DNA of 32,911 nt from an uncultured Candidatus Saccharibacteria bacterium (GCA_964427685.1 CAYRVE010000001.1:1-32911), one strand, 5' to 3'; counted from the stretch's first letter, positions 5,872-16,225 are shown. Numbers and translations are program-made. The notes: generated from the sequence alone by a model not told the origin.

Positions 5872-6087
5872 ATGGCAAAAAAGGGAAACAACGTGGATGA
5901 TGCAGAGCAAACATATAAACTAGATAAGATAGATATTTCTATTAGAAACATTATAAAAGAGTTGAAGGCACTGGAGGAAATGCAAGTCGACTGGCAGAGA
6001 TTGGAGTTGATGATTAAATTGAGCTGGGCGTTGGTAGAGGTGCTCCAAGAAAAACAAGCCTTAACGCATATAGACTTGGAGCACTGA
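5872..6087 (+). CDS. Hypothetical coiled-coil protein (71 aa), on the opposite strand to its neighbours
   Basis: ORF track. ATG 5872 (MAKKGNN...) is preferred over TTG 5845. The start is uncertain and there is no clear SD. Confidence 0.4.
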   Translation: MAKKGNNVDDAEQTYKLDKIDISIRNIIKELKALEEMQVDWQRLELMIKLSWALVEVLQEKQALTHIDLEH

Positions 6088-6179
6088 TGTACGACTCAGT
6101 GTATTGGATATTCTACGGGTTTTGGATACTAATAATTATAGCTGTGCTATTTGCATTTCTAAATGGAGGAAGAGACTAG
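6087..6179 (+). CDS. Candidate 30-aa hydrophobic membrane peptide
   Basis: Its ATG overlaps the TGA of 5872..6087 (TGATG). Reads MYDSVYWIFYGFWILIIIAVLFAFLNGGRD. Below the ORF-track size cut-off. Confidence 0.3.
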   Translation: MYDSVYWIFYGFWILIIIAVLFAFLNGGRD

Positions 6180-6382
6180 CCTCTCATGAAACTCCAGTGT
6201 TTTTCTATCATGGAAGCGATTTCATCATAGCATTCCGCATGAAGATGCTTCTTGGCTTTGTGTTTTTCGGCGCGGCGAATGACGCAGTATTCTCTTAGAG
6301 AATATAAAAACTTTGAATTGGCGTCATTTGCTGATTTTTTGTAGTCTTCGTAAGATTGTTCGAGTGGATGTCCTGTATTCAT
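6176..6382 (-). CDS. Hypothetical basic protein (68 aa)
   Basis: ORF track. GAGG lies 5 nt before the ATG. Promoter candidate directly upstream. Confidence 0.55.
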   Translation of the reverse strand: MNTGHPLEQSYEDYKKSANDANSKFLYSLREYCVIRRAEKHKAKKHLHAECYDEIASMIEKHWSFMRG

Positions 6383-6397
6383 TTTGACCTCGGGCCG

Positions 6398-6426
6398 ACT
6401 ATATTTGAATTTAGCCCCCGTGTCAA
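6398..6426 (-). promoter_or_regulatory. Sigma70-like promoter TTGACA-N17-TATAGT
   Basis: Minus strand: TTGACAcgggggctaaattcaaaTATAGT. It abuts the U-tract of the capsid terminator. Confidence 0.5.
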
Positions 6427-6452
6427 ATAAAAAGCCTCCTTGGGAGGAGGCT
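6427..6452 (-). terminator. Strong intrinsic terminator downstream of the major capsid gene
   Basis: Minus strand: AGCCUCC-UCCCAA-GGAGGCU followed by UUUUUAUUU. 7-bp stem with 5 GC. Confidence 0.7.
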
Positions 6453-6465
6453 CTTAATTTAATGC

Positions 6466-7764
6466 TTAAGCTGACAGAGAAACTACACAGTTCCAGCCTG
6501 GAGCCGAGCAGATCAAGTTACCATAGTAGCCAATCCTGATCTCAAGAGCATCAGCATTGCCTACGCGCAAGCCTTCCAAGCCTTCCATCCCGTAAGTCAG
6601 AATATGTGGAACTTTGCCCAATGAGCGAAGTTTCCAAGTATTCATGGTGAGGAGGTAAGCAGTTTGCGGAGGACACGATCGGTCAGCCAGGATCGTTACA
6701 CGACCGTAAGCAGACTGGAACGTAATACCTTCGAAAGCGACTTCAACTTCGTCGTGATTTACCTGGACGTACTGGACCTTAGCGCCGAGAGCGTTAACCA
6801 ACGATGCATAGGACGAGAAGTCCATGATGCAAAGATCAGGTTTGCCGCCTTCACGGTTCAGGAATGCCAATGCGTTGGTGAGACCTTCTTCGATGGTGTA
6901 AGAAGCAGCATTGAATCTGCAACCAGCCAAGCGAGTCGGATCAGCCGAACGGTTAACGCCCCAAAACGAGTCAGTCGAACTAGGAGTGGTGACAGGAAGC
7001 CAAGCAGCCAAACCGCTCAAAGCCAAGAAGCTCGAAGTAGTAGAAGCGCCACCCGACGGAATATCGCCAGAGACCGAGAGAAAAGCCGAACCACTACCGA
7101 TTGCCCAGTTACCAGACAAGGAGCTAGCCGAAGCCGTACCGGTGACGATACCGTTGGCACGATCAACTGCAGTAATAAGCACTGTATCAGTTGACGGTGC
7201 GCCGCCAGCAGTAGCAGAAGCAACGAGAAGCATTCCAACTTCGAACTGAACGATCTGTTGAGCGTTAGTCAAAGGAAGGACTGTTCCGCCGACGACTGTA
7301 CTATTCTGAGTCGAAGCAGAGGTCGATGTTCCACGAGTCGCAGTACCGTCTCCGAACAATTCAAAAGCGATGTTGTTCGTAATGTTACGGAAACCGCCGT
7401 CCATTTGGAGTTTTGCAGCATCAACGAACGCTCCTGCGTTAGTCTTAGTCTGTTCCATAAGGAGGTTAGTGATCGTAACGAGTTGATAGTCTTCGATTAC
7501 ATACACGAAGTACGAAACGAGGCTCGTCGGTGTCTGTTGGTTCTGCGCATTAGAGAAGCTATGGCTTCGTCCTTGCGGAGCACCGTACTCGAGAGGAACA
7601 GGGATGTATTTTCCTGCGAATCCGTCCGGGCTTTCGTTCTTAGGGACGAGAGCAAGGAAGGGGTTTTCCTTATACACGAGATCTTTCATGTACTCTTTAT
7701 CATCTGTATAGAGTTCTTTTAGTGCCGCGATTTGGTTGGCACTGTTTGCATATGTAGCAGCCAT
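6466..7764 (-). CDS. Major capsid protein (presumed HK97 fold)
   Basis: 432 aa, directly after the scaffold-like gene in portal-scaffold-capsid order. Visibly higher GC. Strong terminator downstream. The family was not identified by motif. Confidence 0.75.
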   Translation of the reverse strand: MAATYANSANQIAALKELYTDDKEYMKDLVYKENPFLALVPKNESPDGFAGKYIPVPLEYGAPQGRSHSFSNAQNQQTPTSLVSYFVYVIEDYQLVTITNLLMEQTKTNAGAFVDAAKLQMDGGFRNITNNIAFELFGDGTATRGTSTSASTQNSTVVGGTVLPLTNAQQIVQFEVGMLLVASATAGGAPSTDTVLITAVDRANGIVTGTASASSLSGNWAIGSGSAFLSVSGDIPSGGASTTSSFLALSGLAAWLPVTTPSSTDSFWGVNRSADPTRLAGCRFNAASYTIEEGLTNALAFLNREGGKPDLCIMDFSSYASLVNALGAKVQYVQVNHDEVEVAFEGITFQSAYGRVTILADRSCPPQTAYLLTMNTWKLRSLGKVPHILTYGMEGLEGLRVGNADALEIRIGYYGNLICSAPGWNCVVSLSA

Positions 7765-7811
7765 TGCTGTTACCTTTCAAAGTAAGTTAAACTAGCGAAC
7801 TAGCACCATTG

Positions 7812-7825
7812 CTAGATGCATCTAG
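7812..7825. promoter_or_regulatory. Perfect 14-bp palindrome CTAGATGCATCTAG in the scaffold-capsid intergenic region
   Basis: Read directly. Flanked by CCA...TGG and preceded by the tandem AACTAGCG/AACTAGCA (7790..7805). Four CTAG sites fall in 34 nt. Confidence 0.6.
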
Positions 7826-7857
7826 TGGATTTCTCTGCCGATTTCTCGGACTCACGA

Positions 7858-8901
7858 TTAATCCTTGAGGCGTCCTTCCATTGCTGCTATGGCTCGTTCA
7901 CGATTAGTTAGCTTACGTGTACTGCTAATAGCGTTAGTAAGGGTTTTGGCTTGTCCTTGTTGGTGTGTCTGCTCTTTCGGTTTGGCTGTCTCAGTTGGTT
8001 TGGGCTGGCCGGCTTGTTCCAACTGCCGTTTAATTTTTCCAAGTCTAGTTAATTTCATGGCTTCCTCTACGAGGTAATTTTCTACTTCCTGACACGCCTC
8101 TTCTACTGGCATGACATAGCCATCTTGCTTATATGTTTCCTCGATAAGCTCTACGACGTCAGAGATAGACTTCGTGGCTTTAATCGTTTCGAACTGAGGG
8201 TCCATAGTCACGATTTGGCGAACATCAGTCTCGATTTGCTTTACAGCGGCTTTATAAGCATCCTGCTGTTGTTGGGACTGTTGTTGTTTGCCTTCATCAA
8301 TTGTGCTCTTTAAACTATTAATCTCTTGTTTCAAGGCATTAATCGTGGCTTCTAGCTGTGGGTTGATACTCGGCTGATTCAGGATTTGCTGTGTGAGTTC
8401 ATCATAAGAAACACCTGAGTCTGCTAGGATACGAAGGGTGTCTTGTTTGAGTTGGTCTCTAGAAATATAGCCTTCGGAGTATTTCTGTTCTGTAGCCTTA
8501 ATAGCCTGTTCTTTGGCTTCAAGGGCAGCTTCTCTAGCCTTTATCTGTTGCTCTTGTTGTTGGGCCTTGGCGCGGAGTTGTCGTTCTTGTCTGGCTAGCT
8601 GAGCGAATTGGCGCTGAAGTGCTGGATCTTTCTCAGGCTTTACTTCTTTTGGAGTATCTTCAGTTCTAGCTAAAGTGTCTTCAATGGGTTGTTTTTCCTG
8701 CGGTTTCACTGCCGAGAGTTCTTCTGGGCTTATATTATTTGGATCTACTGAGTGATTCTCGGGTTGTCTTTGTTGTTCCTTGGGAGCATCGAAGGAGCTT
8801 TGTCCTTTGTTGAAGGCTTCTATAGCGGCTGAACGCTTCTGGCCTGAGTTTGTGTTCGTTGGTTGAATGGCTGCTGGACTAGATACTGGTGTGAGTTTCA
8901 T
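7858..8901 (-). CDS. Scaffolding protein (coiled-coil, Gln/Glu/Lys-rich)
   Basis: 347 aa between portal and capsid. Long heptad-like stretches (QRQFAQLARQERQLRAKAQQQEQQIKAREAALEAKEQAIK). Confidence 0.7.
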   Translation of the reverse strand: MKLTPVSSPAAIQPTNTNSGQKRSAAIEAFNKGQSSFDAPKEQQRQPENHSVDPNNISPEELSAVKPQEKQPIEDTLARTEDTPKEVKPEKDPALQRQFAQLARQERQLRAKAQQQEQQIKAREAALEAKEQAIKATEQKYSEGYISRDQLKQDTLRILADSGVSYDELTQQILNQPSINPQLEATINALKQEINSLKSTIDEGKQQQSQQQQDAYKAAVKQIETDVRQIVTMDPQFETIKATKSISDVVELIEETYKQDGYVMPVEEACQEVENYLVEEAMKLTRLGKIKRQLEQAGQPKPTETAKPKEQTHQQGQAKTLTNAISSTRKLTNRERAIAAMEGRLKD

Positions 8902-8955
8902 ATTATCCTTTACGGGCTATCTCCGCGTAATTGTTAGGGTTTATTGTATTATCAA

Positions 8956-10860
8956 TTAAGAATTAGACGGGGTTGGAGCGGCTCCTGGAGTATTAGGTAC
9001 GAGAGGGCTTGTGGGTGTGGGTTGGGGATTAGCTTGCGGCATTCCTTGAGGCATTGGAGGCGGCATAGCGGCTTGTTTAATAGTTTGGACTTGAGAGAAA
9101 TACTGGCGAAGCATGTCCATTTTATGTTCTTCTAACTTCGCAGAAGAGTAGAGATTTATGTACTGTACTGTGAGCTGTGTAGCTAAGGTAAGATCAGTGA
9201 ATGGATCTGGTGGTACATATTTACCGTGCTCTATGATATCATCAAGAATTTGGAGGATGCGCTCCTCTCCTGCGTTGGCAAGCTTTTCGACTTGCTCAAG
9301 GTCTGGATAATCTAAGAGCCTGCGGCCTTCTTGTAGTGTAATCATTCCGGATTGGACCATCTCCGTGACCTTCGCTAAGCGGCCTGCAGGATCTTTAGGT
9401 AAGGAAGACTGGGTGAAGCATTGAACTACGAAATCATCTTCTGTCATCATAGCGGCTTTAGGAAGATCGATTTCCTTAGTGCCGTTTTTGTTAGGGTATA
9501 CTGTACTATACTTCCCTTGTACTAACGCGATGTCTTTAGCTAAGTCTATGATAAGATAGGTTAAATCAATGAAGAAATTGTCGTAACGTCGTGACAAGGC
9601 AGCGAACCTATCAGTTGAGATATCGTCATAGGTGCGAATAGCTTCACCAGAGTCCAACCCTTGTGGTTTCTGAGAGGACGCTTGCAGCGCGGACACACCT
9701 GATTGTTGGTATCCATACTGGATAAGTTTATCTCTTTCAGCATATAATTCGGGCGCGTTGCAAGGAGCCACGACATATTCCGGCTTAGTTCCTCTATACT
9801 TAATGATGGCGCCGATCTCGTTGTTATGGTGTGCGGAGACGACCTTGCTACCATCTTCTTGGAAGACACGAGGGACTCCTACGAGTTTAATGGCTCTAGA
9901 GATAGTGAATAAAATCTGATTTAATTCGATTTGAGTTCCCATGAGTTGCTCTGCTACACCTTGAGCCCAAAAGCCTAAGAGACGAGGAGAGTAATGTAGG
10001 AATGCAAAGGGGAATTTATCTTTGGTATAGGGTTCGTCTATGAGATAGCCTGAGGAGCAAGCCATCGTATGTCTGCCATCTGTAGCGTTTTTACCGCTTG
10101 GTAAATGCCAGCCCTCTACTACCATTACTAAATCAGACACCTTTTTAGCTGAATCTGATGAGTTATCTGGTGTAGATTCTGCTGCCATTTCAATTTTATC
10201 TCGTAATTTCGGGAAGTTAGCTACGAGGACGTCTCTATCTACGAGTTTAAGTCTGTACATCTGCCGAGGTTCGCCGTACATTGCTTCATTTGGATCTATG
10301 AGAAGCTCGGTGAGAAGGACACGCTCTAAACCGACCCTATTGTCTGGTGTCTCATATACATGAATTACACCTGTGCCTTCTACAAGGGCGTCTCTCAGAG
10401 CAATGGCGCCCTTTTCATAGGCTTTAGTTTGGTAGAATTCTCCAAGAATGAAGTTGTTGAGCTTCTTAGCTAGATTCCTCTGTTTATAATCTCCATTATC
10501 TGTAAGAAATACCGGCTGAGGACGACTCTGTGATAAACGGCTAACCAATGTGTCAGTAACTGATTGGATGAGGTTAAAGGTTGGTCTGTCTTGTGGTAGA
10601 CCGTGATCGTTATCGATTTTAGCGATGTTTGTTCCGGCGAAAGAATATAGACTCTGATTCCCGTATAATCTTGCATAGATAGCTGCTTGTCTGTAGCGGT
10701 AGGCCTGCGATTCCTTGAGGTAAGCTGCTGTAGTAAGCATCAATGCTGCGGCTTTATCTGGATTCTTATCTAACCACCATTGTGCAAGTACTGATTCCTG
10801 CATATCGGGCTTAGTCTTGAAAGTAACAGAAGATTTCTGTTTGACTTTAGTTACTTTCAT
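8956..10860 (-). CDS. Portal protein
   Basis: 634 aa, downstream of the terminase region and immediately upstream of the scaffold. Pro-rich C-terminal tail. Called from size and synteny. Confidence 0.7.
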   Translation of the reverse strand: MKVTKVKQKSSVTFKTKPDMQESVLAQWWLDKNPDKAAALMLTTAAYLKESQAYRYRQAAIYARLYGNQSLYSFAGTNIAKIDNDHGLPQDRPTFNLIQSVTDTLVSRLSQSRPQPVFLTDNGDYKQRNLAKKLNNFILGEFYQTKAYEKGAIALRDALVEGTGVIHVYETPDNRVGLERVLLTELLIDPNEAMYGEPRQMYRLKLVDRDVLVANFPKLRDKIEMAAESTPDNSSDSAKKVSDLVMVVEGWHLPSGKNATDGRHTMACSSGYLIDEPYTKDKFPFAFLHYSPRLLGFWAQGVAEQLMGTQIELNQILFTISRAIKLVGVPRVFQEDGSKVVSAHHNNEIGAIIKYRGTKPEYVVAPCNAPELYAERDKLIQYGYQQSGVSALQASSQKPQGLDSGEAIRTYDDISTDRFAALSRRYDNFFIDLTYLIIDLAKDIALVQGKYSTVYPNKNGTKEIDLPKAAMMTEDDFVVQCFTQSSLPKDPAGRLAKVTEMVQSGMITLQEGRRLLDYPDLEQVEKLANAGEERILQILDDIIEHGKYVPPDPFTDLTLATQLTVQYINLYSSAKLEEHKMDMLRQYFSQVQTIKQAAMPPPMPQGMPQANPQPTPTSPLVPNTPGAAPTPSNS

Positions 10861-11147
10861 TAAACTTCAGCCTTAGATGAGTAATAAAGCATCTGATCTT
10901 CGCTGAGTTCATCAGGCATGTCAATAGCCTCTATAACAGCATTAGCCGTATCCTGTACGCTTACCGGTGAATATTTAGGGACAGGTATGGAGGCCTCTGG
11001 GAATGCGTCATAATCAATCCTGGAGTGTTTAGCCGTGTGTTTAGGCTGTATATTAAACTCTATGCCATCGATCTTAATAGAGGAGACGCCATGCTTTTGG
11101 CATAGCTTCATGACTTTCTCGAGATCTTTAATATCATGTATTGTCAA
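10860..11147 (-). CDS. Hypothetical protein (95 aa)
   Basis: TTG start with AGGA 7 nt upstream. Its stop overlaps the portal ATG (TAATG). Confidence 0.5.
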   Translation of the reverse strand: MTIHDIKDLEKVMKLCQKHGVSSIKIDGIEFNIQPKHTAKHSRIDYDAFPEASIPVPKYSPVSVQDTANAVIEAIDMPDELSEDQMLYYSSKAEV

Positions 11148-11155
11148 AGGACGTC

Positions 11156-12301
11156 CTAGAACTGTCGTTTAGACTTCATTTTCTTTCGGATCGAAGACAC
11201 CATATCGTGTTTGTTCTCTTCTTGGTCTTCTCTCTCGTCGCCATGTTGGCCTGAGTCCATATTGCTATCTACATCGAGATCAGAATCGTTGTAATTCTCT
11301 TTGCGTAGGGCATTCCATGAAGCCTGATCTTCTTCATTGGCATCTTCATCGTGATTGCGAGACATATCGGCTTGGTCAGAGTTATCTGAATCCATTGAAC
11401 CATGAGATAATATATCACCTGAATCCTCAAGGATTTCGCCACCTTCTGCCATCATTGCTGCCGTATCGAGATCGTGGGCGCCGCTATCGATTTCTGCGTG
11501 GAGACGGTCTCTGCGAGACATAATAGCTGCTGCAATTGAGTTGTGATGCTCTTCGTCCATTTCATCTTTTGGAGAGACTTTACCGCCTCGAGCATAGGGC
11601 TTCATACCATTGGAGTGTTCGCGTTCCATATCAGAGACAGGAGGTCCTTGTCGGTCTTGGCCTTCCTCGTCGTCATCCATAGCCATAGACATACCTTCGT
11701 CTTCTGAAGGCGGTAGGTCTAAGAGGTCATCTTCATATTTGTTCTGAGCTTTATGATCGTAGTCTTGTTGCTCGACTTCACCACCTTTGGTATAAGGCTT
11801 GCGATGAGTTGAATGTTCGTCTTGCATATCACGGACTTTTGGTCCTTGACGCTTCGGACCTTCTTCATCGTCATGCATGGGAGGCTGTTCGCCGTAGGGA
11901 CCTGGTCTTGCTGATTCTTCTAATTGTCCTTCTTCGTTGTATAATCGTGTGCTGAAAGCGTCTGAAGGTACCATTCTAGGACGTTTAATGGGGAGTTTTT
12001 TACCTTTTACGTCATTAGCCATGGCTTGCTTCTCTGTTACTCTCGAAGTCCACTCATCGTTTAGTGGGACTTTATCGCCTTTATTGTGCCGGACTTCTTT
12101 GGAATCGTTATGTGTATCATCTGGCATTGGACGTTTCTCTGTTTTAGCAGAAATCGATCCGCCTTCAGCCATTTTCTTTTTAGCTTTACGTTGTACGGAA
12201 TAAGCAATAGCTAAGGCTTGAGGTTTGGGTTTGCCATGCTCCATCTCGGTAGCCATGTTTTTGCTAAATGCTTGTTTTGACTTAGATTTCATTAATGGCA
12301 T
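11156..12301 (-). CDS. Highly acidic repeat protein with basic termini (possible internal virion or assembly protein)
   Basis: 381 aa. Internal duplication of aa 142-176 and aa 207-242. Recurrent MAEGG[SE]I and EH-x-KP motifs. The N- and C-termini both carry MKSK(S/R). Confidence 0.65.
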   Translation of the reverse strand: MPLMKSKSKQAFSKNMATEMEHGKPKPQALAIAYSVQRKAKKKMAEGGSISAKTEKRPMPDDTHNDSKEVRHNKGDKVPLNDEWTSRVTEKQAMANDVKGKKLPIKRPRMVPSDAFSTRLYNEEGQLEESARPGPYGEQPPMHDDEEGPKRQGPKVRDMQDEHSTHRKPYTKGGEVEQQDYDHKAQNKYEDDLLDLPPSEDEGMSMAMDDDEEGQDRQGPPVSDMEREHSNGMKPYARGGKVSPKDEMDEEHHNSIAAAIMSRRDRLHAEIDSGAHDLDTAAMMAEGGEILEDSGDILSHGSMDSDNSDQADMSRNHDEDANEEDQASWNALRKENYNDSDLDVDSNMDSGQHGDEREDQEENKHDMVSSIRKKMKSKRQF

Positions 12302-12519
12302 TAGATTATCTCCGGAATAGAGGGAGGGGAGTTGTCGGTAAAAGTCACCATAATGTCAGGAACTTCAGAGACTTGACCGTTAGAAGAAAACTCAAACACC
12401 ATGATAAGTGACTGATTTCCTAAAGAATCTGTACGGATAAGCCATGCCAACACAAAACCTGATGTATAAGTAGGATTAGCAATAGTACCTGTATTGAAGT
12501 TAGCAGGACGACGTATCAT
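12301..12519 (-). CDS. Hypothetical beta-rich protein (72 aa)
   Basis: ORF track. TAAATG junction with the upstream gene and a 1-nt overlap with the downstream gene. Confidence 0.5.
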   Translation of the reverse strand: MIRRPANFNTGTIANPTYTSGFVLAWLIRTDSLGNQSLIMVFEFSSNGQVSEVPDIMVTFTDNSPPSIPEII

Positions 12520-12828
12520 TTAGAGATTCCCCATAGTAATAGCGACTGAGGTTTTTACTGCATTGGAAGCGTTGTCATCAGCGGACGTAGAACTCATAGT
12601 GATTTTAATGATGTCGCCAGCTATTGCCGCGACCTCTTGAGTAAAACCTTTATCACCAGCAGCTGAAGTATATTTAGTTGTGCTATTAACTTTCAGAAGT
12701 GTAATAAGTGCTGATCGACCAAAGAGTGGAGTAGTCTGTGACACCTGCACAACATAGGTGCCAGTAGTCGGAGCGACTACATCTAACTCTGATAGACCTA
12801 CAGCTGTAAACGTCTGCCGGTAAAGCAT
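12520..12828 (-). CDS. Hypothetical beta-rich protein (102 aa), tandem paralogue of 12828..13208
   Basis: Shared blocks: VAPTTGTY/VPTTDTY, KVNSTTKYTS-AGD-GF and AGD-IK-T-SS. Confidence 0.6.
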   Translation of the reverse strand: MLYRQTFTAVGLSELDVVAPTTGTYVVQVSQTTPLFGRSALITLLKVNSTTKYTSAAGDKGFTQEVAAIAGDIIKITMSSTSADDNASNAVKTSVAITMGNL

Positions 12829-13208
12829 TAGTAAGCACCTTCAGAGATGCTAATCGTACATTGTGTGGCATTGAGCTGTTCATCTTGTGCAAGGCTAGAA
12901 CTCAATGTTACTTTAATAGTATCGCCAGCTGTGGCCTGAACACCGATAAAGAATCCTCTGTCACCTGCATTAGATGTGTATTTAGTAGTGCTGTTGACTT
13001 TCACTACAACAACGACTTGACTTGGAATAGGCAGACCTGGTACCGAGCCTGTTCCAATACCGCCGCCGCCAGAACCTGATGCTGCCGTAGGGACTAAATT
13101 AGTTGGAAGTTGAAGTGTTCCAGCTACATTGTAGGTATCTGTAGTAGGAACAATAAAATCGAATTCTTGAAGCCCTGTAACAGTGATATTTGATACGTAG
13201 TTAGCCAA
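12828..13208 (-). CDS. Hypothetical beta-rich protein (126 aa) with a Gly-rich insert, tandem paralogue of 12520..12828
   Basis: As for its paralogue. Has an additional SGSGGGGIGTGSVPGLP loop. Confidence 0.6.
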   Translation of the reverse strand: MANYVSNITVTGLQEFDFIVPTTDTYNVAGTLQLPTNLVPTAASGSGGGGIGTGSVPGLPIPSQVVVVVKVNSTTKYTSNAGDRGFFIGVQATAGDTIKVTLSSSLAQDEQLNATQCTISISEGAY

Positions 13209-13475
13209 TTAATCCTCCTGGGATTCATATGAATGCGGTTCGATGTGTGGACCTTCTTCATGAGGCTCTTCATCGATTTGTTTCACTGCTTCTTTAAAGC
13301 ACTCTGCTGCAGCTTTATAGTCTTTAGCTGAGAGATGTTCTGCTAGTCTCTCCATGGAGGACTCTAGGTCTGTAATGTCTTGATTTTCTTGAGGATTTTC
13401 ATCTGGCTGGCGTTTCTTGATAATAACGCCTACAGCCATACCTTTTTTTGGTTTTAGAAAGGGAAGCACATACAC
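13209..13475 (-). CDS. Hypothetical acidic protein (up to 88 aa; start uncertain, GTG 13475 or ATG 13439)
   Basis: ORF track. No convincing SD for either start. Confidence 0.45.
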   Translation of the reverse strand: MYVLPFLKPKKGMAVGVIIKKRQPDENPQENQDITDLESSMERLAEHLSAKDYKAAAECFKEAVKQIDEEPHEEGPHIEPHSYESQED

Positions 13476-13503
13476 CTCAGCTATTCAGCTAAAATGTATA
13501 TAA

Positions 13504-13770
13504 TTAGGGCTTTTCTTTGTAATCTATAAGAACTGGGATGTAATTTCCTTGGAATTCATCTCCTTTTCGTATCATTTTAAGAAAAGGATTGTCTTTATAA
13601 ATTAGGTTTGTAAAAACGTTAGAATCCACGTCATTATAATACTTTTCTATATCTGTTTTATACAGCATTTCTTCTAGTTCAGACAAGTCATTGTTCTCTT
13701 TAGCTATTACGTATTCTGGTTTTGTAGGATTACCGTATAGTTCTTTTAACAAGTTTATCGCTGACTTCAT
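13504..13770 (-). CDS. 88-aa protein resembling the N-terminus of the major capsid protein
   Basis: INLLKELY and NLIYKDNPFLKMIRKGDEFQGNYIPVLIDY match IAALKELY and DLVYKENPFLALVPKNESPDGFAGKYIPVPLEY of CDS 6466..7764. Its ATG overlaps the terminase TGA (ATGA). Visibly AT-rich. Confidence 0.55.
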   Translation of the reverse strand: MKSAINLLKELYGNPTKPEYVIAKENNDLSELEEMLYKTDIEKYYNDVDSNVFTNLIYKDNPFLKMIRKGDEFQGNYIPVLIDYKEKP

Positions 13771-15200
13771 TCTCCACCGCTATACCACTTAGCATATTCT
13801 GTGGCTTGTTGTGCTCTTTCGAGTTCAGCCTCAAACATACTCTCTGTTTGTTGTTTCGCCCACTCTTCTGTGCCCCACCTAGGCTTATCAGATTCAGGAG
13901 GTTTGTAACTAAAAGCATAACTAACTTTAAAGGCGTATAATACTGCATCGATAATATCTGAATGGAATCGGTTACTTACTTTGATTCTCTCTGGAGTTGT
14001 TTTATCTCTATCGATCTCTACTAGGAATGTCTCTCTAGCGAAACGAGAGTCTTTTTTGGCTTTAAACATACCTGTGCGAAGGGCATCATCTAATAAAGCA
14101 TAATTCTCCATTTTACGAGTCTTATCTGCTGCCTCTACTGGAATAAGGAATCTTCGGATCAGTTCCTCTCCAATCTTTTTACCGAGTCCGCCCATATCCA
14201 TTATCATCTTATTGATCTTGAATTGTTTGTCTATCTCTTTGATTTGATTAGCTAATGTGGTAATATCAGATTTAGCTGTAATTACTTCGTGTACTAGATA
14301 TGTAGCAGGATCTTGTTCAGACCAAGCCAAGACACTCAATGCATCTGAATCTTCAAAACCTACGTCAATACCCAGTATATAATTATAAGTTACATTAGGC
14401 TTTAACATTTGGAAATCATTGAGAGATTCTGTATAATGGAGTAACAAACTATCGCTATCTAATACCCATTCTCCGAAATATTCTCTACGAATACTTGGGC
14501 TGTCTGCTGTAACACCTCTACGCTTAAGCTCTCGTTCTAATAGTGTCTGCTGATTTACACCCGACTTAAGAGGCAAATGAGGGTTGTCCCAAAGAGTCCA
14601 GCCGTGCTTGCTCCAAGTATCAAGTTCCACCGCGCACTCGTGAAAGAAACCAGCAGGAATAGGCCCTGGAGTACCAATAAGGCAAAGGCTGCCAGCATAA
14701 TCAATAAGTGCAGGTGCAATAATGTCATCGATGAGTTCTCTAATATATTCCCGAAAAGATTGACATTCATCAATATAACAAAGATTAAGAGCAAGTCCAC
14801 GAAACTTCTCGATTTCTGAAGCATTCAAACATCCTGATAGGTAAATAGTTGATTCATTTGGAAATATAATGGAGAGTTCTGTTTCATTTTCTTTACCGCC
14901 AAGGTCATGCTCGCGGTTAATCCTGCGAAGTTCTTTCCACACGAGTTTTTTAGCAGTATCTCTAGTTAGAGTGATGTAAAGGCTGTTACTACCAGTCTTA
15001 TTGAGTGCCATATGGATGAGATGAGCAGCACATGCCGTAGTTTTGCCGGACCTTCGGCTACACACGGCTACTTTATACGGTGCAGGATCTTCTACGAAAG
15101 CTAATTGTTTGTCGAATAAGAAAGCCGTGACATTAAATTTACGAGAATAGAACCTGTCTAATTCTTTTTTATCTGTCTGCGGCTTAATTATTCGCTTCAC
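13767..15200 (-). CDS. terL: Terminase large subunit
   Basis: Walker A VCSRRSGKTTA, Walker B LCYIDECQ, and a C-terminal nuclease-like region containing GIDVGFEDSDA. 477 aa. GTG start overlapping the upstream TGA. Confidence 0.85.
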   Translation of the reverse strand: MKRIIKPQTDKKELDRFYSRKFNVTAFLFDKQLAFVEDPAPYKVAVCSRRSGKTTACAAHLIHMALNKTGSNSLYITLTRDTAKKLVWKELRRINREHDLGGKENETELSIIFPNESTIYLSGCLNASEIEKFRGLALNLCYIDECQSFREYIRELIDDIIAPALIDYAGSLCLIGTPGPIPAGFFHECAVELDTWSKHGWTLWDNPHLPLKSGVNQQTLLERELKRRGVTADSPSIRREYFGEWVLDSDSLLLHYTESLNDFQMLKPNVTYNYILGIDVGFEDSDALSVLAWSEQDPATYLVHEVITAKSDITTLANQIKEIDKQFKINKMIMDMGGLGKKIGEELIRRFLIPVEAADKTRKMENYALLDDALRTGMFKAKKDSRFARETFLVEIDRDKTTPERIKVSNRFHSDIIDAVLYAFKVSYAFSYKPPESDKPRWGTEEWAKQQTESMFEAELERAQQATEYAKWYSGGE

Positions 15201-15439
15201 TCAGCAAGCACCGTATGTATAAAACCTGTTACTGGTACTAGGAACTGAATGATCTTCTTAGGATTCTTTTGTGCCGGCACTTCTACTAATACCCACGGCT
15301 CACAAAGAGTCATTTTAGTGGCCTTTCGAGCCGTATCAGACCAGTTTTGTAGCGTAGGACCGAACTGACCTGTCTCTGGATGATGAATATGCCCATGCAT
15401 AGTAGCGTAAGAGATTTCTTTACTATCGTATTTAGACAT
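15197..15439 (-). CDS. Hypothetical protein (80 aa)
   Basis: ORF track. Coupled at both ends (TAATG, GTGA). Confidence 0.5.
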   Translation of the reverse strand: MSKYDSKEISYATMHGHIHHPETGQFGPTLQNWSDTARKATKMTLCEPWVLVEVPAQKNPKKIIQFLVPVTGFIHTVLAE

Positions 15440-15705
15440 TATGCACTTTCCTGCGGCGTCTCAGTTTTAGTCTCTTCTGTAGCCTTGTTTTTAGCTTCTA
15501 AATCGAGTTTAGAGCGTTCCGAAGCCTCGACTTCGACTTCTTGGATACGAGACAAGAAAGAGCGTATATCAGCATCGATACGGTGAATTTGATATCGAGC
15601 CGAGCCTATTTTAGCGCAAAGCTGATTATATTCACCGTTGATTTCCGTCATTTCCCTCGGAGGAGTCTTGGTAGTTCCCGCCAACTTCTGCAACATTTTT
15701 TTCAT
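15439..15705 (-). CDS. Hypothetical coiled-coil protein (88 aa). A small terminase role cannot be excluded.
   Basis: ORF track. GGAG lies 7 nt before ATG 15705. Confidence 0.5.
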   Translation of the reverse strand: MKKMLQKLAGTTKTPPREMTEINGEYNQLCAKIGSARYQIHRIDADIRSFLSRIQEVEVEASERSKLDLEAKNKATEETKTETPQESA

Positions 15706-15802
15706 TAACAGCTCCTTTTTTAGCTAATTTAGTTAATTTTTTGAATTCTTTGTTTTTCATGATCTTACGTTGTCGTTCTTCATTAGTCTTAAATCTGCCC
15801 AT
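15632..15802 (-). CDS. Candidate 56-aa very basic protein that fills the 15706..15808 gap and overlaps the next gene out of frame
   Basis: ATG 15802 preceded by GAGGTTAT. Reads MGRFKTNEERQRKIMKNKEFKKLTKLAKKG... Below the ORF-track cut-off. Confidence 0.3.
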   Translation of the reverse strand: MGRFKTNEERQRKIMKNKEFKKLTKLAKKGAVNEKNVAEVGGNYQDSSEGNDGNQR

Positions 15803-15808
15803 ATAACC

Positions 15809-16225
15809 TCAGAATAGTGGATTGAATTTAGCGTTTGGTAACTTATATCGAAGCTCAGACCCTAATTTAGTAAGATGCGCAATGTACTTAGGGTTTTGAG
15901 CGATCAATGATTTAGCCACACCTTTACGGCGCCATGCGGCCTTTACAAACACCCAATACAGTGTTTCTTTGTTCTTAGATACAATGCTATAGCCTAGAAT
16001 TACGTCAGAATCTTCTGGTAGACAAGCTACTACAACCTCTGTATTAGGATCATTTATAAGTGCTTGCACGACATGCTTATATTTATTCATGAAGAGGTCT
16101 TTGGGCATTTCACTAAAAAGACTCTCACCATAATAAAGTCCTCTAAGGAATGTAGCTAACACGAAATTCTTATCAGTATCTTTAGCTAATCTCGTATTAA
16201 ATAAACCTATAAAATCATTTGTCAT
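15809..16225 (-). CDS. GNAT-family N-acetyltransferase
   Basis: Acetyl-CoA motif A, WRRKGVAKSL (R-x-x-G-x-A), after a beta-strand VFVKAA. 138 aa. Confidence 0.55.
   Translation of the reverse strand: MTNDFIGLFNTRLAKDTDKNFVLATFLRGLYYGESLFSEMPKDLFMNKYKHVVQALINDPNTEVVVACLPEDSDVILGYSIVSKNKETLYWVFVKAAWRRKGVAKSLIAQNPKYIAHLTKLGSELRYKLPNAKFNPLF

Follow-up and report, generated by a model that had tools for sequence, protein, structure and literature searches.

A terminase-coupled gene of an uncultured phage and its family of free-standing capsid N-arm paralogues

The locus and its genes

The window analyzed in the current work is a stretch of 32,911 nucleotides (GCA_964427685.1, CAYRVE010000001.1:1-32911) filed under an uncultured Candidatus Saccharibacteria bacterium. 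It is part of a lytic-type phage genome of about 55-59 kb, which encodes DNA polymerase A, a DnaB-like helicase, SbcC-like and RecA-like proteins and a PAPS reductase; its structural genes include terminase, portal, scaffold and major capsid protein (MCP). The gene under study, ORF88, starts within the stop codon of the large terminase gene (TerL) and encodes 88 amino acids (aa) that resemble the N-terminal arm (N-arm) of the MCP. The central features are the following.

13504..13770, minus strand: ORF88, 88 aa, a free-standing capsid N-arm paralogue of subfamily a', recognized from its open reading frame (ORF), its MCP homology, its family membership and an AlphaFold2 (AF2) model
13767..13770, minus strand: ATGA, the overlapping TerL stop and ORF88 start (putative translational coupling), read from the sequence; the overlap recurs in orthologues
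13767..15200, minus strand: TerL, 477 aa, the gene to which ORF88 is coupled (Pfam Terminase_6N and Terminase_3)
6466..7764, minus strand: MCP, 432 aa, uninterrupted in the window (Pfam SU10_MCP and PHROG 'major head protein')
7582..7764, minus strand: MCP codons 1-61, the N-arm region paralogous to ORF88 (BLASTP, HHalign), with residues invariant or nearly so among MCP relatives

The reverse complement of 13767..13770 is ATGA, in which the ATG of ORF88 shares nucleotides with the TGA of TerL, exactly as an earlier reading of the window from sequence alone (the sequence-only reading) had described. That reading had also called ORF88 more AT-rich than its neighbours, and the GC content is indeed 0.30 over 13470..13729 against 0.36-0.45 in the flanks. 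With 16 acidic and 12 basic residues, the protein is net acidic. A spacer of 28 nt separates ORF88 from the next gene, ORF88b, and neither an endonuclease gene nor an intron remnant adjoins ORF88 in the window. A moron would have its own promoter and terminator; no promoter-like site was found upstream of ORF88 on the minus strand, where promoter counts are near shuffle expectation, and the hairpin past its stop codon has a weak T-run. The overlap with TerL favours expression from an operon. Fusion of TerL and ORF88 by frameshifting was ruled out, since the junction has no slippery site. Assemblies of three further samples contain the window genotype as well, with no more than one substitution in each over 3.9-15.3 kb and the same single-nucleotide polymorphism in two; this recurrence indicates that ORF88 is a real gene, though it is uninformative on selection.

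Homology of ORF88 to the capsid N-terminus

The resemblance of ORF88 to the capsid N-terminus, first proposed by eye, is significant for single sequences and for profiles alike. BLASTP against the MCP of the window aligned ORF88 aa 23-84 with MCP aa 6-60 (E 4e-10, 37 % identity). The profile alignment that the sequence-only reading had suggested, carried out by HHalign with 85 family members against 16 MCPs of two capsid clades, gave a probability of 99.1 % and E 7e-19. In this alignment LKELY pairs with ALKELY, which reproduces the pairing of INLLKELY with IAALKELY noticed earlier, and the C-terminal block pairs with MCP aa 28-61; the insertion between the two blocks, estimated before at about 35 aa, takes up about 40 columns. 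ORF88 ends 4 residues past the end of the homology, where the capsid body would begin, as had been remarked, and no capsid-like sequence follows it in any frame. Identity to any MCP N-terminus is at most 42 %; the separate ancestry suggested earlier is thus borne out as that of a diverged family, and not of a recent copy of the resident MCP. The parts of ORF88 are as follows.

13735..13761, minus strand: aa 4-12, the 'INLLKELY' helix, equivalent to MCP aa 11-19 (IAALKELY), from HHalign and the AF2 helix at aa 4-12
13618..13734, minus strand: aa 13-51, a subfamily-specific helical insertion, PTKPEYVIAKE..LSELEEMLYKTDIEKYY, conserved in P0021, P0022, P0033, P0051, P0079 and P0053
13519..13617, minus strand: aa 52-84, 'FTNLIYKDNPFLKMIRKGDEFQGNYIPVLIDY', equivalent to MCP aa 26-60, from BLASTP and HHalign; family consensus LxYxxNPFLxLIxKxxxFxGxYxPVP

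BLASTP aligned the middle helix (ORF88 aa 29-47), instead of the first helix, with the ALKELY helix of the MCP, and this preference suggests that the middle insertion may be an internal repeat of the first helix. ORF88 itself is no HK97-fold MCP: only MCP aa 6-61 are aligned, there is no Pfam MCP match, and the model consists of five short helices and a tail. The MCP of the window matches Pfam SU10_MCP at E 5e-5 and 23.4 bits, just below the gathering cut-off of 24.1 bits, and has homologues in at least 2948 clusters. The segment copied by ORF88 is its best-conserved part.

A family of free-standing N-arm paralogues

A profile built from the free-standing, capsid-N-terminus-like ORFs of IMG/VR relatives (lineages L009 and L023, see below) was scored against 1.84 billion representative proteins. 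At E <= 1e-3, 89 clusters were found, nearly all of 49-183 aa (a range that includes the 88 aa of ORF88), and in most of them the match extends into the last few residues of the protein. Three exon-1 fragments of interrupted MCP genes (P0060, P0073 and P0083) and one long repeat protein are the exceptions. The common pattern consists of an L-K-E-L-Y helix, a variable middle and the block [LI]xYxxNPFLxLIxK..FxGxYxPVP, with a stop codon a few residues later, and the positions conserved in the family are the invariants of the MCP N-terminus (L15, Y19, Y31, N34, P35, K42, G51, P55 and P57). ORF88 follows this pattern: aa 8-12 are the consensus LKELY, and aa 56-84, LIYKDNPFLKMIRKGDEFQGNYIPVLIDY, are succeeded by KEKP and the stop codon, in keeping with the C-terminal block of the family. 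ORF88 can be assigned with high confidence to a family of functional N-arm paralogues.

Existing collections hold little of this family. Pfam gave nothing above threshold for 11 members, ORF88 included; PHROGs gave nothing for ten of them and, for ORF88 alone, a weak match to phrog_1681 (E 3e-4). No match to a small terminase subunit (TerS) appeared in either library among these 11 members. GenBank phages returned no match to window DNA 6000-16000, nor by tblastn with ORF88, the window MCP, an MCP of the second clade, P0009 or P0024. The family and its capsid class are absent from the cultured phages of the collection searched. A word-indexed protein search with ORF88 alone returned only ORF88 itself, and a literature search brought up nothing relevant on capsid N-arm paralogues or decoys. 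Phages were already known to encode capsid paralogues and accessory proteins of assembly; the new element is an N-arm-only form coupled to the terminase. The family is unnamed, comprises at least 85 clusters at 50 % identity and has so far been met only in uncultured phages, probably of soil or peat. Naming it would provide annotation for many genes now called 'hypothetical'.

Several subfamilies can be distinguished. That of ORF88 has the middle segment PTKPExVIAxExGxLSxlExxlYxxEIxxY; identity to ORF88 is 53 % for P0021, 46 % for P0022 and 37-40 % for P0033, P0051, P0079 and P0053. Subfamily (a) begins with MANQYANS, as the MCP does, and the c-type subfamily carries 'GYYRAxK..EEWA'. P0050 and P0066 have an N-terminal Cys-rich, zinc-ribbon-like extension of the kind found in HNH ORFs of these phages. 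On L177, a truncated C5-methyltransferase-like ORF that ends in the N-arm-like scrap ...LYEPNPSLALVKKES lies directly upstream of a b-type member (L177:727-1044 and 1071-1502).

The AF2 model of ORF88, made from an alignment of 85 sequences, has a mean pLDDT of 84.6, with helices at aa 4-12, 19-25, 31-49, 52-58 and 62-66 and an extended tail at aa 67-88. A small helical domain with an extended tail is thus confidently predicted. Foldseek with this model found nothing significant in PDB or BFVD, and the MCP profile had no match among PDB sequences.

Genomic context and distribution

Eighty relatives from IMG/VR (L001-L080) were gathered through their MCP and searched by tblastn and hidden Markov models for free-standing ORFs like the capsid N-terminus. 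Such ORFs were present in two lineages: L009, with two tandem copies upstream of TerL, and L023, with one copy overlapping the TerL start. IMG/VR scans with the alignment of the ORF88 subfamily were swamped by MCP N-termini, and scans with the b-type alignment returned almost only the query contig. Together with the contigs of other family members, 13 independent contexts could be compared, and in 9 of them a family gene flanks TerL, on either side, in three subfamilies and usually with a stop/start overlap. A place beside TerL, before or after it, is the hallmark of this widespread family. The positions are listed below.

Directly downstream of TerL, overlapping: the window; L167/P0022; an ERZ1426829 contig/P0021; L166/P0051; L174/P0048 (b-type)
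Directly upstream of TerL, overlapping its start: L162/P0027; L163/P0009; L023/P0002
Upstream of TerL with one ORF between: L009/L084
In the replication module, far from TerL (c-type): L165/P0024; L173/P0059 (followed by an HNH gene)
Other or unknown flanks: L090/P0015 (HNH-like ORF downstream); L177
13209..13475, minus strand (window): ORF88b, the conserved downstream neighbour, which follows TerL directly in most relatives

Stop/start overlaps of 1-22 nt with TerL recur in L167 (TerL 83 % identical to that of the window), L166, L174 and the ERZ1426829 contig. These orthologues also overturned the idea that ORF88 is private to the lineage of the window (L167, L166, ERZ1426829). Wherever the downstream flank lies on the contig, members downstream of TerL precede a homologue of ORF88b (that flank is not shown on the ERZ1426829 contig). 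In about 44 relatives ORF88b follows TerL after a gap of about 50 nt, with no N-arm gene between, so that ORF88 is to be regarded as an accessory insertion. Copy number varies within the L009 lineage, with two genes in L009, one hybrid in L084 and a tail-less fusion in L087.

Compared with the remainder of the head module, TerL itself is mosaic. Among relatives with 75-92 % identity to the window in the MCP and 65-80 % in the portal, TerL sequences form classes of about 29 %, 42 % and 60 % identity (window 13767..15200 against L001-L080). These sequence comparisons indicate that modules have been exchanged at TerL, where the N-arm paralogues are located.

An AT-rich hairpin of 16 pairs (13502..13467, minus strand) begins directly past the ORF88 stop and spans the Shine-Dalgarno sequence and GTG start of ORF88b. 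It was flagged as terminator-like, with a weak T-run, and might instead control the translation of ORF88b.

Selection on ORF88

Between the window and L167 synonymous sites are saturated (proportion of synonymous differences, pS, 0.77), and the proportion of non-synonymous differences (pN) is 0.34 for ORF88, 0.14 for TerL, 0.31 for the scaffold and 0.38 for ORF126; ORF88 thus diverges at a rate like that of other small head-module genes. Neutral sequence would be expected to show a pN near pS as well as stop codons, so the value for ORF88 indicates purifying selection. The earlier opinion that ORF88 is not decaying is strengthened by orthologues that are intact in four lineages, and its question of whether the gene is conserved in relatives receives a positive answer from the syntenic orthologues, yet most close relatives are without the gene. 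The tandem paralogues of L009 have a dN/dS of 0.21 at a dS of about 1.7, and their middle segments are nearly identical.

Proposed function and competing explanations

Taken as a whole, the data are best explained if ORF88 is a functional accessory gene encoding a soluble mimic of the capsid N-arm, a reading that we hold at about an even balance. The family would descend from the 5' end of an SU10-like HK97-fold capsid gene, comprising the N-arm, the following loop and the first strand into the capsid body. ORF88 would be made late, together with TerL, through termination-reinitiation at the ATGA. Because it retains the N-arm invariants of the MCP (the LKELY helix, the NPFL turn, the K and G-x-Y-x-P), it should occupy whatever binds them. 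The likeliest partner would be the basic C-terminal domain of the scaffold and, with less likelihood, a neighbouring capsid subunit. Such binding would tune procapsid assembly or scaffold release around packaging, when the terminase appears.

7858..8901, minus strand: scaffolding-like protein, 347 aa, between portal and MCP, assigned from its position and conserved C-terminus TLTN..RKL..RERA..A..G

In phage P22, the basic C-terminal helix-loop-helix of the scaffold binds acidic residues of the coat-protein N-arm (D14/E15/E18) through R293/K296, and this N-arm refolds at maturation (PMC9965877). P22, a podovirus, has the same portal-scaffold-coat layout as the window. A scaffold partner is suggested for ORF88 by this analogy, by the basic and conserved C-terminus of the window's scaffold and by the net acidic charge of ORF88. 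The simplest mechanism, competition with capsid N-arms for the scaffold or neighbouring-subunit site, is put forward tentatively on that analogy. The supply of an N-arm in trans to an arm-less MCP was ruled out, as the N-arm exons are retained in all carriers whose MCP is known. Both scaffold binding and the transition from procapsid to mature head are governed by capsid N-arms, so that a diffusible copy of the arm made with the terminase would, if confirmed, be a new modulator of assembly or packaging, or a decoy against immunity that senses capsids. An ORF88-like protein could also be used directly to probe N-arm interactions.

A number of observations count against an N-arm mimic that acts in head assembly. 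Only 2 of 51 TerL-bearing IMG/VR relatives carry the gene and 49 are without it, and since most close relatives assemble heads in its absence, it is no core assembly factor. The tight linkage to TerL is left unexplained by scaffold binding. The two closest orthologues, P0021 and P0022, end just past NPF[LI]K without the FxGxYxPVP tail, and the PVP of the family and the MCP is replaced by PVL in ORF88; together, these changes imply that the tail is the least constrained part in this subfamily. The AF2 model of the MCP, made from a shallow alignment, has a pLDDT of 46, too poor to place the N-arm. Finally, the alleles of L009 and L084 differ by 0 synonymous and 6 non-synonymous changes and 2 indels, against 10 synonymous and 4 non-synonymous changes in neighbouring genes (one-sided Fisher p about 0.005 from these counts). 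This pattern hints at episodic diversification or relaxation and, combined with the variable copy number, is also typical of arms-race genes.

The allele pattern is what would be expected of a decoy or competition effector, whose mimicry would bind a host immune sensor of the capsid N-arm without activating it or poison the capsids of co-infecting relatives. The patchy presence of the gene among relatives, its tandem duplication and hybrid and deleted alleles, and its AT-rich composition agree with such a role. Co-infection is evidently frequent, given the many homing endonucleases and mosaic TerL genes, and the mimicked segment, as the most conserved of the MCP, would be a good immune target. 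A dominant-negative arm would, however, also hit the nearly identical N-arm of its own phage; coupling to TerL in 9 of 13 contexts, on either side, would be unexpected, and ORF88 diverges no faster than the small head-module genes around it. No homology to known anti-defence proteins was found, PADLOC and anti-defence libraries being uninformative or not searched for ORF88. A decoy is accordingly considered unlikely.

The adjacency to TerL is best explained by another rival, in which ORF88 would be a terminase accessory, for instance a regulator or an adaptor connecting TerL with the procapsid or the portal vertex, and would dock through its N-arm-like surface at the docking sites of capsid N-arms. 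Phage proteins that interact often have neighbouring, coupled genes, and the usual overlap with TerL in those 9 contexts would fit. Small terminase subunits, like ORF88, are small proteins encoded beside TerL and coupled to it. In contrast to them, the present family lacks any TerS match in the 11 members scanned with Pfam and PHROGs, has its homology with the capsid protein and not with any TerS, may be encoded downstream of TerL and is missing in most relatives with this packaging module. Moreover, the usual small-terminase position is already occupied by a conserved ORF88c/ORF80 gene pair, and c-type members lie in the replication module, far from TerL. A terminase accessory is therefore rated as quite unlikely.

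The accessory mimic shares its concept with the redirection proteins of phage satellites, small accessory proteins that imitate one component of the assembly machinery and thereby bind its partner. Among these, CpmB of SaPI mimics the scaffold, Sid of P4 forms an external cage and Ccm of PICI is a full-length capsid homologue. ORF88 differs in that it is encoded by a phage and copies only the capsid N-arm. The comparison with satellites made in the sequence-only reading finds no support, because the window and related contigs of 55-59 kb encode full replication and structural modules, in contrast to a satellite, an integrase-bearing island short of most structural genes; nothing found in the analysis indicated redirection of capsid size. 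Duplication of a capsid gene within one phage is known from T4, where gp24 and gp23 are full-length paralogues and gp24 is a complete HK97-fold vertex protein. ORF88 shares the duplication and differs as an N-arm-only fragment that now forms an independent family of small proteins. Compared with HK97-fold MCPs in general (P22 gp5; SU10-like, PF17236), it is homologous to the first 60 or so residues of the resident MCP and the helix, turn and strand motifs are kept. Lacking P-domain, A-domain and E-loop, ORF88 cannot form a shell; it contains a helical insertion of 35-40 residues, and it is encoded 6 kb from the MCP gene, beside TerL.

Proposed origin from capsid exon 1

Introns in capsid genes are known, as indicated for Cluster J mycobacteriophages (PMC3706429). 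Unspliced transcripts of relatives with interrupted MCP genes would give N-arm-only peptides ending near aa 55-62, the same end point as that of the free-standing proteins. Capture of capsid 'exon 1', followed by divergence, is therefore a reasonable origin for the family, and such peptides, of which P0060, P0073 and P0083 are examples that score with the family profile, are its likely source. ORF88 differs from them in lying off the capsid locus with no intron or endonuclease gene after it, in being 37 % identical to the MCP and in coexisting with an uninterrupted MCP gene.

The same facts could be read to mean that copies of exon 1 were scattered by intron and homing-endonuclease activity and that ORF88 persists as a selfish by-product without benefit. 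The N-arm region of the MCP in relatives is full of HNH-bearing, intron-like insertions (aa 26/27, 36/37, 55/56 and 60-62), the C-terminal boundary of the family (MCP aa ~60) falls within this cluster, subfamily (a) still has the MCP start, the exon-1 products resemble the family, and members in L173 and L090 are closely followed by HNH genes. This accounts for the origin of the gene better than for its persistence. A pN well below the saturated pS, the conservation of subfamily-specific insertions, a TerL-adjacent position kept through 40-53 % protein identity and the lack of any endonuclease gene or intron remnant beside ORF88 in the window all speak for a gene in use, and we judge a selfish by-product improbable.

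The scar or pseudogene fragment of a replaced capsid gene that the sequence-only reading had offered as an alternative would suit the truncation relative to the MCP and the AT-richness, but it is contradicted by 89 homologous clusters with the same end point, syntenic orthologues intact in four lineages, the evidence of purifying selection, a confidently predicted fold and the lack of further capsid-like sequence past ORF88 in any frame, and is most improbable.

Intron and endonuclease traffic in a structural gene may create new genes, of which the present family would be a concrete example. In a wider and doubtful version of the accessory-mimic proposal, a widespread class of terminase-coupled N-arm mimics derived from captured capsid exon 1 would compete for the scaffold or a host capsid sensor and so link scaffold release or immune evasion to terminase synthesis. 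To our knowledge, no such layer of head-assembly control has been described.

Neighbouring genes, host and interrupted capsid genes of relatives

At window position 12160, the sole substitution relative to L081 and L083 changes codon 48 of ORF381 (11156..12301, minus strand) from GGA to TGA. ORF381 is an acidic protein of 381 aa, which the TGA allele splits into pieces of 47 and 323 aa; the 47-aa piece is a conserved N-terminal domain matching phrog_2423. ORF126 and ORF102 (12520..13208, minus strand) are tandem paralogues (BLASTP E 1e-21, 38 % identity), with a Gly-rich insertion in ORF126. Relatives have one or two copies after ORF88b, and three are found downstream of the MCP in L035.

A frameshifted and decayed TerL-portal-scaffold-MCP module was found at 153-175 kb of a 360-kb contig (L170, CAVYVX010000006.1) from an Acidobacteriaceae metagenome-assembled genome. 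This remnant is a possible clue to the host of the uncultured group. Some sample names point to bog or wood material, and a bacterial host from soil or peat is likely.

Unlike the MCP gene of the window, those of many relatives contain large insertions of 600-1000 nt, mostly with an HNH or EndoVII-type ORF. Carriers, in the 5' regions of the MCP gene, are L021 (810-1550), L162 (13245-14119), L018, L020, L025, L027, L031, L036, L038, L043, L045, L048, L050, L053, L056, L059, L065, L074, L075, L078, L079 and L080. The insertions lie at aa 26/27, 36/37, 52-56, 60-62, about 109, about 125 and 310, and share a conserved core across sites (for example AAAACCAACCAAAAACGGTGAAGGCTGAAATGCTAATACCGTGCTAA ... 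GTAGAGGATAAAAAGCCTCTACGATAACA) with stems that show compensatory changes. They start after an exon U, with P1-like U.G wobble pairing to a guide-like sequence 10-20 nt inside, and end in a terminal G. By these sequence features they have the anatomy of group I introns; Rfam returned nothing on them, even at E <= 1.

Twelve mini-insertions of 35-59 nt were also observed, at three sites (aa 22/23, 30/31 and 46/47). They break the frame and have a stop codon at or near the 5' end. Carriers are L018, L036, L050, L074 and L162 (after aa 22), L043, L056, L075 and L078 (after aa 30) and L021, L048, L065 and L060 (after aa 46). In 12 of 12, the insertion forms a stem with the final 6-9 nucleotides of the exon, and this pairing covaries between sites and lineages; the stems include AGACGAU/GUCGUCU, AUCUCG/CGAGAU, CAUCGU/ACGAUG, CAUUG/CAAUG and AAAGCCCU/GGGGCUUU. 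Most mini-insertions end in G, and in each case examined a large intron-like insertion follows later in the gene. The mini-insertions are too short for self-splicing. Three explanations stand side by side: helper-dependent splicing, with the neighbouring intron as helper; translational bypass as in T4 gene 60, for which no matching take-off and landing codons were seen; and reinitiation, for which an ATG or GTG before K23 is present at one site only. An archaeal host with bulge-helix-bulge introns was ruled out, since relatives encode lysozyme and ERF and the prophage remnant lies in an Acidobacteriaceae contig.

A second class of insertions, of 150-200 nt and without an ORF, is represented by L041/L042:10196-10347, L050:~11072-11275 and parts of the L074 and L075 insertions. 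Its members share ...GATTGACTTGGAACTCC..GACAACAAGGGGCAAGCGAAAGC..CCTGAACGACTAAG... and are located at MCP aa ~54 and ~410. In L041/L042 the insertion is accompanied by a partial duplication of the N-arm, in which MCP aa 1-54 are followed by aa 32-432.

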